A stretch of 64,000 bases of DNA from Archangium sp. (GCA_031367385.1 JANLPS010000005.1:1-64000), one strand, 5' to 3'; numbered from the stretch's first letter, positions 32,830-34,442 are shown. Program-made: numbers and translations. The notes: generated from the sequence alone by a model not told the origin.

Positions 32830-33198
32830 ATGAATTCGATGTCGAAGTGTCGTTCGTGTGACGGCCTGGTGCCCGCACGTCAGGTGATGTGCCCGCATTG
32901 CGATGCGCCGGTGCCGGTGAAGCGGAGGTCGAAGTTCATCGCGGCGCTCTCGGTGGCCTCGGCCGGCGTCGCCTCGATGACCTTGATGGCGTGTTACGGC
33001 ATCCCCGCGGCGCCGTGCGATTACGCGGCCGATGGAGGCACGCAGCACAACGGCATGACCTGCCAGGGCGTGTGCGTCGACCCCGCCTCGACCGCTGCCG
33101 CGCACTGCTACGACTATCAACCAGCTGACGCGGGCACCGGCGACGCCGGCACCGATGCTGGCACGCAGACCGACGCTGGCGCGCGCGACGGAGGCTGA
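32830..33198 (+). CDS. 122-aa zinc-ribbon + lipoprotein-like protein with a C-Y-G motif; putative radical SAM substrate
   Basis: MNSMSKCRSCDGLVPARQVMCPHC, then a hydrophobic helix, TLMAC-YGIP, a Cys-rich core and a DAG tail. GGAAGG RBS. Ends 5 nt before the radical SAM gene. Confidence 0.85.
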   Translation: MNSMSKCRSCDGLVPARQVMCPHCDAPVPVKRRSKFIAALSVASAGVASMTLMACYGIPAAPCDYAADGGTQHNGMTCQGVCVDPASTAAAHCYDYQPADAGTGDAGTDAGTQTDAGARDGG

Positions 33199-33203
33199 CC
33201 TCC

Positions 33204-34442
33204 ATGCTTCGGCGACAAGACCTGAGCCAGACGTTTCACCCCGCTTACGTGGTCTGGGAGTTGACGCTTGCCTGCGATCAACCCTGCACCCACTGTGGTT
33301 CTCGCGCGGGGTCGCGACGCCCTGGTGAGCTGTCGACCGCCGACGCGCTGAAGGTCGTCACCCAGCTCGCCGCCCTGCGTACCAGAGAAGTGGTGCTCAT
33401 CGGCGGCGAGGCGTATCTGCACGAGGGCTTTCTGGAGATCATCGCCGCGCTGAAGGCCGCTGGCATTCGGCCCTGCGTGACCACCGGCGGGCGGGGCATC
33501 ACCCGGTCGCTGGCGTTCGCGATGGCTGGCGCTGGGCTCTACGCGTGCTCGGTGAGCATCGATGGGGTCGAGGTGACGCATGACTTGATGCGCGCCGCTC
33601 CCGGGAGCTTTCGCAGCGCGACCGGGGCGCTGCGGTTCTTGAAAGAAGCGGGCATTCGCGTCGCCGCGAACACCAATGTGAACCGGTTGAACATGGGTGA
33701 CCTCGAGGCGGTGGCGGCGCAGCTGGTGCCGCTGGGCATTTTTGCGTGGCAGGTGCAGATCACCGCTCCGTTGGGGCGTGCGGCTGACCGGCCGGCGATG
33801 ATTCTGCAGCCGTGGGACCTGCTCGAGCTGATGCCTCGCGTGACCGCGCTCAAGAAGTCGCTCTGGGCCGAGCACAAGGTGGCGCTGATGGCTGGCAACA
33901 ACCTGGGGTACTTCAGCCCAGACGAGGCGGTGCTTCGGAGCGCTCCTGGCCTGGGGGCAGAGGATCATTGGCAGGGCTGCATGGCGGGCAAGTTCGTGAT
34001 GGGCATCGAGGCCGATGGTGGGGTGAAGGGGTGCCCTTCACTGCAGGCGAATTACATCGGTGGTTCGCTCAAGACGCAGTCGCTCGAGGAGATCTGGTCA
34101 GCCGAAGAGTCACCGATTGCCTTCACCCGGCGGCGCACCGTCGATGACTTGTGGGGGTTCTGCAAGACGTGCCCGTTCGCCTCGACGTGCCTGGGCGGGT
34201 GCAGCTTCACGGCGCACGCGGTGGTCGGGCGGCCGGGCAACAACCCGTTCTGCTACTACCGGGCGAGCACGCTGAAGAAGCAGGGGCTGCGGGAGCGGTT
34301 GGTGTTGCGCGAGGCAGCTCCTGGGCAGCCGTTCGACAATGGGCGGTTCGAGATTTCGCAGGAGGCCTTCGGGGCGCCTGATCAGAAGCCTCCGACACCG
34401 CGGGAGTTGGTGAAGAAGCTGAAGCCAGTGGCGGCCGTCTAA
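33204..34442 (+). CDS. Radical SAM/SPASM peptide maturase (resembles the PlpX-like splicease / Y_X10_GDL-associated family)
   Basis: VWELTLACDQPCTHCGSRAG (CxxxCxxC) and LIGGEAYL. SPASM cysteines in WQGCMAG..GIEADGGVKGCPSL and CKTCPFASTCLGGC..GNNPFC. Confidence 0.93.
   Translation: MLRRQDLSQTFHPAYVVWELTLACDQPCTHCGSRAGSRRPGELSTADALKVVTQLAALRTREVVLIGGEAYLHEGFLEIIAALKAAGIRPCVTTGGRGITRSLAFAMAGAGLYACSVSIDGVEVTHDLMRAAPGSFRSATGALRFLKEAGIRVAANTNVNRLNMGDLEAVAAQLVPLGIFAWQVQITAPLGRAADRPAMILQPWDLLELMPRVTALKKSLWAEHKVALMAGNNLGYFSPDEAVLRSAPGLGAEDHWQGCMAGKFVMGIEADGGVKGCPSLQANYIGGSLKTQSLEEIWSAEESPIAFTRRRTVDDLWGFCKTCPFASTCLGGCSFTAHAVVGRPGNNPFCYYRASTLKKQGLRERLVLREAAPGQPFDNGRFEISQEAFGAPDQKPPTPRELVKKLKPVAAV

Follow-up and report, generated by a model that had tools for sequence, protein, structure and literature searches.

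A conserved splicease-like radical SAM enzyme and zinc-ribbon protein pair in Archangium sp., with a putative lipobox cysteine that overlaps a predicted splice site

Spliceases, binary splicease systems and DAG-RiPPs are all known. In type I spliceotide systems (PlpX/PlpY/PlpA, PcpXYA, Pleurocapsa), a radical SAM/SPASM enzyme is encoded beside a precursor that carries an XYG motif, and a survey by Scott et al. (2022) is reported in a review to have covered 189 genera and confirmed 27 pairs (PMC10849128). Spliceotide ketoamides have been described as inhibitors of serine and cysteine proteases, an activity that the unspliced forms do not have (PMC11626197), and the native spliceotide end products are, according to a review, still elusive (PMC9811515). 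Modification of a RiPP in the cytoplasm followed by SPII lipidation has been demonstrated for MNIO enzymes, in the DAG-RiPPs (PMC13056109). Here, we describe a two-gene unit that has features of both spliceotides and DAG-RiPPs. It lies in a 64,000-nucleotide stretch of Archangium sp. DNA (GCA_031367385.1 JANLPS010000005.1:1-64000), the whole of which we call the window, and its features are as follows.

32815..32826, + strand: purine-rich GGAAGGAAGAAG, a likely ribosome-binding site judged by its sequence, preceding the ATG at 32830
32830..33198, + strand: predicted substrate gene, 122 aa, with ribbon, basic linker, hydrophobic helix, lipobox-like LMAC, YG and an acidic, disulfide-type tail
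32848..32901, + strand: Cys7-Cys24 zinc ribbon of RanBP2/NZF-like fold, a predicted enzyme-docking module by homology to the TIGR03913 C-terminal domain
32932..32994, + strand: predicted helix 35-55 ending at Cys55 (AlphaFold2 secondary structure; hydropathy)
32983..33000, + strand: L-M-A-C55-Y56-G57, a lipobox-like motif overlapping the predicted X-Y-G site (CYG conservation)
33001..33195, + strand: variable region with four Cys and DAG/DGG repeats, predicted from Cys parity to be exported
33204..34442, + strand: radical SAM/SPASM enzyme, 412 aa, of a splicease-like clade by profiles and trees, with no zinc ribbon of its own

An earlier note, made from the DNA alone, had drawn attention to this unit, and its description of the two genes is borne out in all particulars. 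The genes are separated by 5 nt, and the smaller one is indeed hidden inside a longer call, as a GTG call from 32437 (253 aa) encloses the 122-aa ORF, whose homologues begin in the alignment at the position equivalent to the ATG at 32830. The order of elements that had been noticed is present, namely C7xxC10-x10-C21xxC24, the hydrophobic helix, T-L-M-A-C55-Y56-G57-I-P, four further Cys (63, 78, 82 and 93) and a tail rich in D-A-G, for which AlphaFold2 gives a pLDDT of about 50 (33001..33195). The single YG of the protein directly follows the putative lipid-bearing Cys. The downstream gene is a full radical SAM/SPASM gene that carries VWELTLACDQPCTHCGSRAG and GIEADGGVKGCPSL and matches Pfam Radical_SAM and SPASM. 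Among the five proteins scanned (the pair and three neighbors), none matched a PqqD/RRE family, as had been observed for the adjacent genes, and none was a Nif11/NHLP precursor or a separate Y protein. On one side of the unit is a divergent WecA/MraY-like gene, on the other a convergent carboxypeptidase-regulatory-like gene, and promoter and terminator scans gave chance-level results only. The Atlas clusters closest to the 122-aa protein are unnamed hypothetical proteins, and the close relatives of the host are Myxococcaceae and Archangiaceae. Further downstream in the window (34894-35820, + strand), a 308-aa ORF resembles a lipoprotein; it contains some seven Cys-rich DGDG repeats and matches nothing in Pfam or NCBIfam.

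We postulate that the conserved unit makes a lipoprotein whose lipid-bearing Cys becomes an α-keto-β-cysteine through a splicease-type enzyme, a reading that we regard as having about an even chance of being right. Judged from sequence, its parts fare better singly: processing as a lipoprotein is highly probable and splicing at YG is likely, and that both occur on the same molecule is a matter on which the balance is level.

The neighbor survey was built on a profile of the ribbon columns alone, so that there was no selection for YG; a first neighbor count had required YG and was therefore biased, and the ribbon-only survey is relied on instead. A ribbon gene was found near the enzyme in 72 of 80 genomic loci (within 3 kb) and in 60 of 80 metagenomic loci (2-kb flanks), with several of the 20 remaining metagenomic loci on short contigs. 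For the eight genomic loci without a ribbon gene, five genomes were searched, and four carry the gene elsewhere, once just past the flank. In a set of 151 Myxococcota genomes, all 14 full-length enzymes of at least 54% identity have the ribbon gene adjacent; one further genome has enzyme and ribbon gene at contig ends, and in another the small gene is frameshifted and no enzyme was found. The pairing of enzyme and ribbon gene is far above chance. The unit is accessory, as roughly one in ten of the searched genomes carries it, and single cases come from Leptospiraceae and Sericytochromatia; when the Leptospiraceae enzyme was used as a query, no further clade members were returned. The pair is intact in three genomes of a single genus, all of them small at 2.4-3.4 Mb (L186, L187 and L189, in G096, G056 and G040). 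There is no conserved third gene in the 80 loci: apart from three large clusters that come from reading the enzyme gene in its other frames, no flanking-ORF cluster occurs in more than 8 of them.

The earlier note had proposed a survey of homolog neighborhoods for CYG, and the motif proved to be conserved, in 124 of the 136 ribbon-selected neighbor genes, with YG of any kind in 133. The other 12 comprise nine in which YG lies further downstream, one without YG, one with the segment deleted and one that is truncated (genomic set: 69 distinct genes with CYG, four displaced, one without YG, one with the segment lost; metagenomic set: 55 with CYG, five displaced, one truncated). The CYG overlap spans several Myxococcota families and one Leptospiraceae genome, and YG keeps a fixed place in the homolog alignment, in contrast to the freely variable remainder of the mature part. 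Among ordinary lipoproteins of the host genome, Tyr is seldom found at +2 (2 of 332, a crude set). In a whole-protein profile search, proteins with PF11617 repeats dominated, and the ACYG found in 59 of 59 is biased, since the profile contained the motif. Two genes beside enzyme homologs depart from the pattern, one that keeps ribbon and lipobox and has no YG (LSAC-SG; L071:2510-2986) and one that has lost the helix end and the ACYG segment (L034:1745-2236).

In the nine displaced variants, X is Ala, Val, Ile, Leu or Pro and the Tyr stands at +5 to +18, and two of them keep LMA or MA ahead of the non-Cys X. Their enzymes are nested within the same clade. On a 58-row quick tree, the displaced state needs five changes, although the starred branches alone force no more than one origin. 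Thus, the proposal that the lipobox Cys serves as X holds as a description of the common state, but Cys is not required there. No report of Cys accepted as X was found in the literature searched, a scope that left out Morinaka 2018 and Lakis 2022, in both of which X residues were reportedly tested.

With regard to the enzyme, the suggested kinship with spliceases stands, whereas membership in TIGR03913 or TIGR04103 does not. The best NCBIfam match is TIGR04103 (402.3 bits), below its cut-off of 725, and the next is TIGR03913 (391.5 bits over profile positions 12-389), below its cut-off of 591.75; the family after these reaches only 142 bits, and TIGR04133 gives 133 bits with a cut-off of 425. 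TIGR04103 is presumably the same family as IPR026482, and we take the TIGR03913 enzymes to be proven spliceases. PlpX has been described as a member of IPR026482 (PMC11002830). A Nostoc member of TIGR04103 (853 bits, over the cut-off) was used in place of PlpX for comparison; it adjoins a Nif11 precursor that ends in an LYG motif and a 71-aa gene, and the window enzyme is 45% identical to it and shares motifs with it along the whole length. Identity to records annotated as GDL-motif maturases is 42-47%, and xYG precursors occur near enzymes of the related clades. A 61-row tree unites the window enzyme and 27 relatives, mostly myxobacterial, in a group of their own (SH-aLRT 98). Next to it stand the groups of TIGR04103, TIGR03913 and Polyangiaceae, and the more distant members of the tree, on long branches, are TIGR04133-like enzymes and further SPASM enzymes; the 58-row quick tree gives SH-aLRT 100 for the same split. 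The CxxxCxxC motif lies at 24/28/31, and the three radical SAM and seven SPASM Cys are conserved in at least 90% of 48 aligned enzymes. Because of these profile scores, trees and conserved Cys, the enzyme is best described as splicease-like by homology, yet a member of neither named family.

This separate position, below both cut-offs, leaves some room for the enzyme to act on Tyr-Gly by other chemistry, such as a Cys-Tyr thioether, an aryl crosslink or a side-chain rearrangement. Most members do present an adjacent thiol, and SPASM relatives form thioethers, with SkfB the best solved relative (E 6e-20). However, enzymes of the same clade pair with AYG, VYG, IYG, LYG and PYG, which have no adjacent Cys; these variants suggest that the thiol is not needed for the enzyme chemistry and therefore argue against a Cys-Tyr crosslink. 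Moreover, the Gly after the Tyr is kept in 133 of 135 untruncated genes, and sactipeptide maturase families score only 72-81 bits. We consider chemistry of this other kind improbable, and splicing at YG the better account of the same data.

The earlier note had suggested that the ribbon might act as a leader or recognition element in the absence of an RRE gene, and homology lends support to this idea. The window ribbon matches TIGR03913 positions 428-455, at the C-terminus of the profile, weakly (E 0.011), as do 10 of 49 homolog ribbons at E ≤0.05, and the profile-profile probability for the substrate ribbon and the TIGR03913-type ribbon is 96.9%. When a model of 49 enzyme-borne ribbons was run against 112,219 six-frame ORFs of the host, the window N-terminus ranked second (E 0.0085), behind a stand-alone gene beside a second splicease (E 2.9e-8), and nothing else fell under E 1.5; the E-values for the window ribbon are to be read with caution, as short CxxC ribbons match one another readily. 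AlphaFold2 gives the ribbon a pLDDT of 92-93. In a Foldseek search with it, no hit reached E ≤0.001 (the best had E 0.88 and a probability of 0.96), and the nearest solved folds are RanBP2/NZF fingers, with E-values that are not significant. None of 79 enzymes of the window clade carries a ribbon. Of 81 sister-clade loci, 55 have it at the C-terminus of the enzyme and 19 in a different ORF, and in the other 7 no ribbon was found. The 19 separate ORFs include 10 Polyangiaceae lipoproteins, 2 that look like frameshifted enzyme ends and 7 that look like stand-alone genes. As it is found on enzymes, in neighboring ORFs and on this substrate, the ribbon appears to be a splicease accessory domain that may be part of the enzyme, a separate neighbor or part of the substrate, and it likely docks the substrate to the enzyme in place of an RRE. 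Its varied location parallels the interchangeability of PlpY and the RhaA leader helix, which have been described as interchangeable activators (PMC11414181).

Two further loci are of interest with respect to the ribbon. The second splicease of the host genome lies in a split TIGR03913 locus (L081, G000:C444, 156-2186, − strand), in which the enzyme covers TIGR03913 positions 5-393 (591.5 bits) and the next gene positions 421-477; this stand-alone 66-aa zinc-ribbon-helix gene corresponds to the last 57 positions of the profile, and upstream lies a precursor of 184 aa in which MYG occurs twice. On a Tropicibacter plasmid, a splicease-like enzyme has a similar zinc ribbon at its own N-terminus (L168:2210-3832), surrounded by genes for two peptidases, a phosphotransferase and another radical SAM protein, with no obvious YG precursor.

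Since the host's second locus has the ribbon as a separate, non-substrate gene, and its MYG precursor might be reachable by the window enzyme, one may ask whether the small protein of the window is itself no substrate but a membrane tether that brings the ribbon to an enzyme acting on other proteins. Such a role seems very improbable in view of a YG at a fixed place in an otherwise freely variable mature part and of the lack of any other conserved neighbor in the loci surveyed; in addition, cleavage by LspA would part the ribbon from its anchor. We therefore return to the small protein as a predicted substrate, and to its likely fate as a lipoprotein.

In 122 homologs, the context of the Cys is lipobox-like (L or M at -3; M, S or A at -2; A at -1), and 115 of them have a net basic linker. 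A basic n-region, an h-region and a lipobox Cys are thus present at the level of pattern, with a rather low hydropathy: averaged across the 14 residues that precede the Cys, it is 1.41 in the window protein, close to the family median of 1.42, and the median of control lipoproteins is 1.90, in a control set that was pre-filtered at >1.5. Met at -2 is uncommon, with xMA-C in 5 of 332 host lipoproteins (crude set). Instead of a short N-terminal signal, the protein has its Cys at residue 55, behind a folded zinc ribbon; a signal of 54 residues that includes such a metal finger is unusual. Downstream of the lipobox Cys, the Cys count is even in 120 of 122 homologs (six of them with no such Cys) and, once the set is dereplicated, in 28 of 29, compared with 204 of 290 host lipoproteins (crude set) and 99 of 155 enzymes. 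Because the number of later Cys is even, this suggests an exported, disulfide-bonded region in which Cys+1 is left free. PF11617 repeats occur in 23 of 49 homologs and are absent from the window protein. In the host genome, LspA (2) and Lnt (1) score over the cut-off, and two Lgt homologs fall under it. A twin-arginine signal was considered and dropped, as RR is not conserved in the alignment.

Some of these features could also be expected of a splice site. Proven sites, too, have Ala or Pro ahead of X (PMC11414181, supplement), and LMA or MA is retained there in two displaced variants; the Ala of LMAC is thus suited to a splice-site context as well as to a lipobox. In the same way, helix 35-55, which is predicted to be a signal-peptide h-region, is possibly also an activator helix. 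Taken further, the protein might be spliced and be no lipoprotein at all, with the helix as an activator leader like RhaA/PlpY and the Cys conserved as X for chemical reasons. An activator helix is described ahead of the core in binary systems (PMC11414181), a helix follows the enzyme-borne ribbons as well, and the low hydropathy and the Ala at X-1 would fit. Against this, in all nine variants with a displaced YG and a non-Cys X, a Cys in lipobox-like context still ends the hydrophobic stretch. The sister Polyangiaceae class combines ribbon, helix and lipobox Cys with a YG far downstream, and the even Cys parity points to export. A spliced protein outside the lipoprotein pathway is, in our judgment, decidedly improbable. 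In the sister Polyangiaceae/Polyangiales clade (L087-L098, 10 loci), ribbon-helix-lipobox proteins are encoded downstream of the enzyme and carry several [PA]xYG[AG]P sites on Gly/Thr-rich linkers, far past the lipobox Cys; one locus (L087) has four such genes in tandem.

If the small protein is both spliced and lipidated, its maturation could proceed in three steps. First, the N-terminal ribbon of the precursor, homologous to the TIGR03913-type ribbon, would bind the cytoplasmic enzyme and so replace an RRE or Y protein. Second, as the enzyme family and the conserved YG suggest, tyramine (C8H9NO, 135 Da) would be excised from Tyr56 and the carbonyl of Cys55 joined to the former Tyr carbonyl. 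Third, helix 35-55 would export the C-terminal part; Lgt would place a diacylglyceryl group on the Cys55 thiol, LspA would cut Ala54|Cys55 and so remove ribbon and helix, Lnt would acylate the amine, and the four later Cys would form two disulfides. The product would be a lipoprotein anchored by an S-diacylglyceryl α-keto-β-cysteine, which would show a ketoamide electrophile at the membrane surface. Since spliceotide ketoamides inhibit proteases, the simplest and most plausible role, by analogy, would be that of a tethered inhibitor of a membrane-proximal serine or cysteine protease.

Lgt, LspA and Lnt may reject a ketone beside the Cys. Splicing and lipidation would then be alternative fates, because the ketone blocks Lgt or LspA or because export outruns splicing, and the modification would act as a switch, with an ordinary lipoprotein as one outcome and a membrane-anchored ketoamide protein that escapes cleavage as the other. 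The new ketone would indeed sit on the very residue that Lgt and LspA read, the weakly hydrophobic helix could let export and splicing compete, and the nine variants part the two sites, which would relieve the conflict. However, the overlap is the state of 124 of 136 genes across several Myxococcota families and in a Leptospiraceae genome, which is hard to reconcile with spoiled maturation, and a switch needs regulation, yet the genes often form one operon (small gene upstream on the same strand as the enzyme in 41 of 72 loci). We consider alternative fates, and the switch that they imply, unlikely, and retain the single product that is both spliced and lipidated as the working model.

It is tempting to speculate further about the chemistry of such an anchor. 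Splicing would delete residue +2, and this position of a lipoprotein is the classic sorting position. A ketoamide model derived from Gly is reported to be about 42% enol in buffer (PMC10533398). In the predicted product, a thioether would stand β to an enolizable ketone, so the diacylglyceryl thiol could eliminate; this would loosen the protein from the membrane and unmask a vinyl-ketoamide electrophile. The full picture, in which the anchor is an N-acyl-S-diacylglyceryl-α-keto-β-cysteine, the ribbon has moved from enzyme to substrate and thiol elimination makes a self-arming lipid anchor, is offered tentatively and is rather doubtful.

If the proposal is correct, radical SAM spliceases would join the MNIO enzymes as makers of DAG-RiPPs, and there would be a lipoprotein whose anchor residue has been rewritten, a case not found in the literature searched. 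Likewise, neither this clade nor a zinc-ribbon lipoprotein substrate nor an overlap of lipid Cys and splice site is described in the literature searched, which did not include the survey of Scott et al. (2022); that survey or its supplement may include this clade. One two-gene construct would bear on whether Lgt, LspA and Lnt accept a β-amino-ketone at +1, on the role of the TIGR03913 C-terminal zinc ribbon and on the purpose of ketoamides in native cells. A membrane-tethered product would be easier to isolate than a diffusible peptide, and the ribbon may find use as a portable tag that recruits proteins for splicing.

One of the closest known systems is that of the TIGR03913 GDL-motif (DUF1843) maturases, which have xYG precursors nearby and the same zinc ribbon. 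There, the ribbon is on the enzyme C-terminus and the substrates are several short DUF1843 peptides, whereas in the window unit it is on the N-terminus of one lipoprotein-like substrate. Like the type I spliceotide systems, the unit places an XYG motif next to a radical SAM/SPASM enzyme, but it is without their Nif11/NHLP leader and Y protein; X is Cys where theirs is Met or Leu, and its precursor, unlike theirs, combines a zinc ribbon with a signal of the lipoprotein type. The TIGR04133/TIGR04134 pair of Bacteroidota also sets a SPASM enzyme beside a lipoprotein. Its enzyme is distant (28.5% identity), its partner has an ordinary short signal with neither ribbon nor Cys/YG overlap, and none of 49 partners of window-clade enzymes matched TIGR04134. 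No functional paper on this pair was found in the literature searched. In one Phocaeicola example (L171:2396-4008), the partner has a CEYGTP motif, with YG 11 residues after the lipobox Cys; TIGR04133/TIGR04134, named but uncharacterized, may likewise be a splicease-lipoprotein pair.

The binary type II systems RhaX/RhaA, RcsX/RcsA and RasX/RasA of Rheinheimera resemble the window unit in having two components, no Y protein and a helix ahead of the XYG site, and their products are described as inhibitors of serine and cysteine proteases (PMC11414181, PMC11626197). The comparison is by description, and the descriptions drawn on mention neither a ribbon nor lipidation. The DAG-RiPPs DybA/DybH and NedABC likewise use a cytoplasmic maturase and then the housekeeping lipoprotein pathway, and their clusters, too, are often just precursor and enzyme (PMC13056109). 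As described there, the maturase is an MNIO, the modified motif lies apart from the Cys that is lipidated, and the precursor has a conventional signal peptide; the words 'radical', 'rSAM' and 'splic' have no occurrence in the main text of that paper (PMC13056109). The conserved unit described here would join two known kinds, the spliceotides and the DAG-RiPPs.
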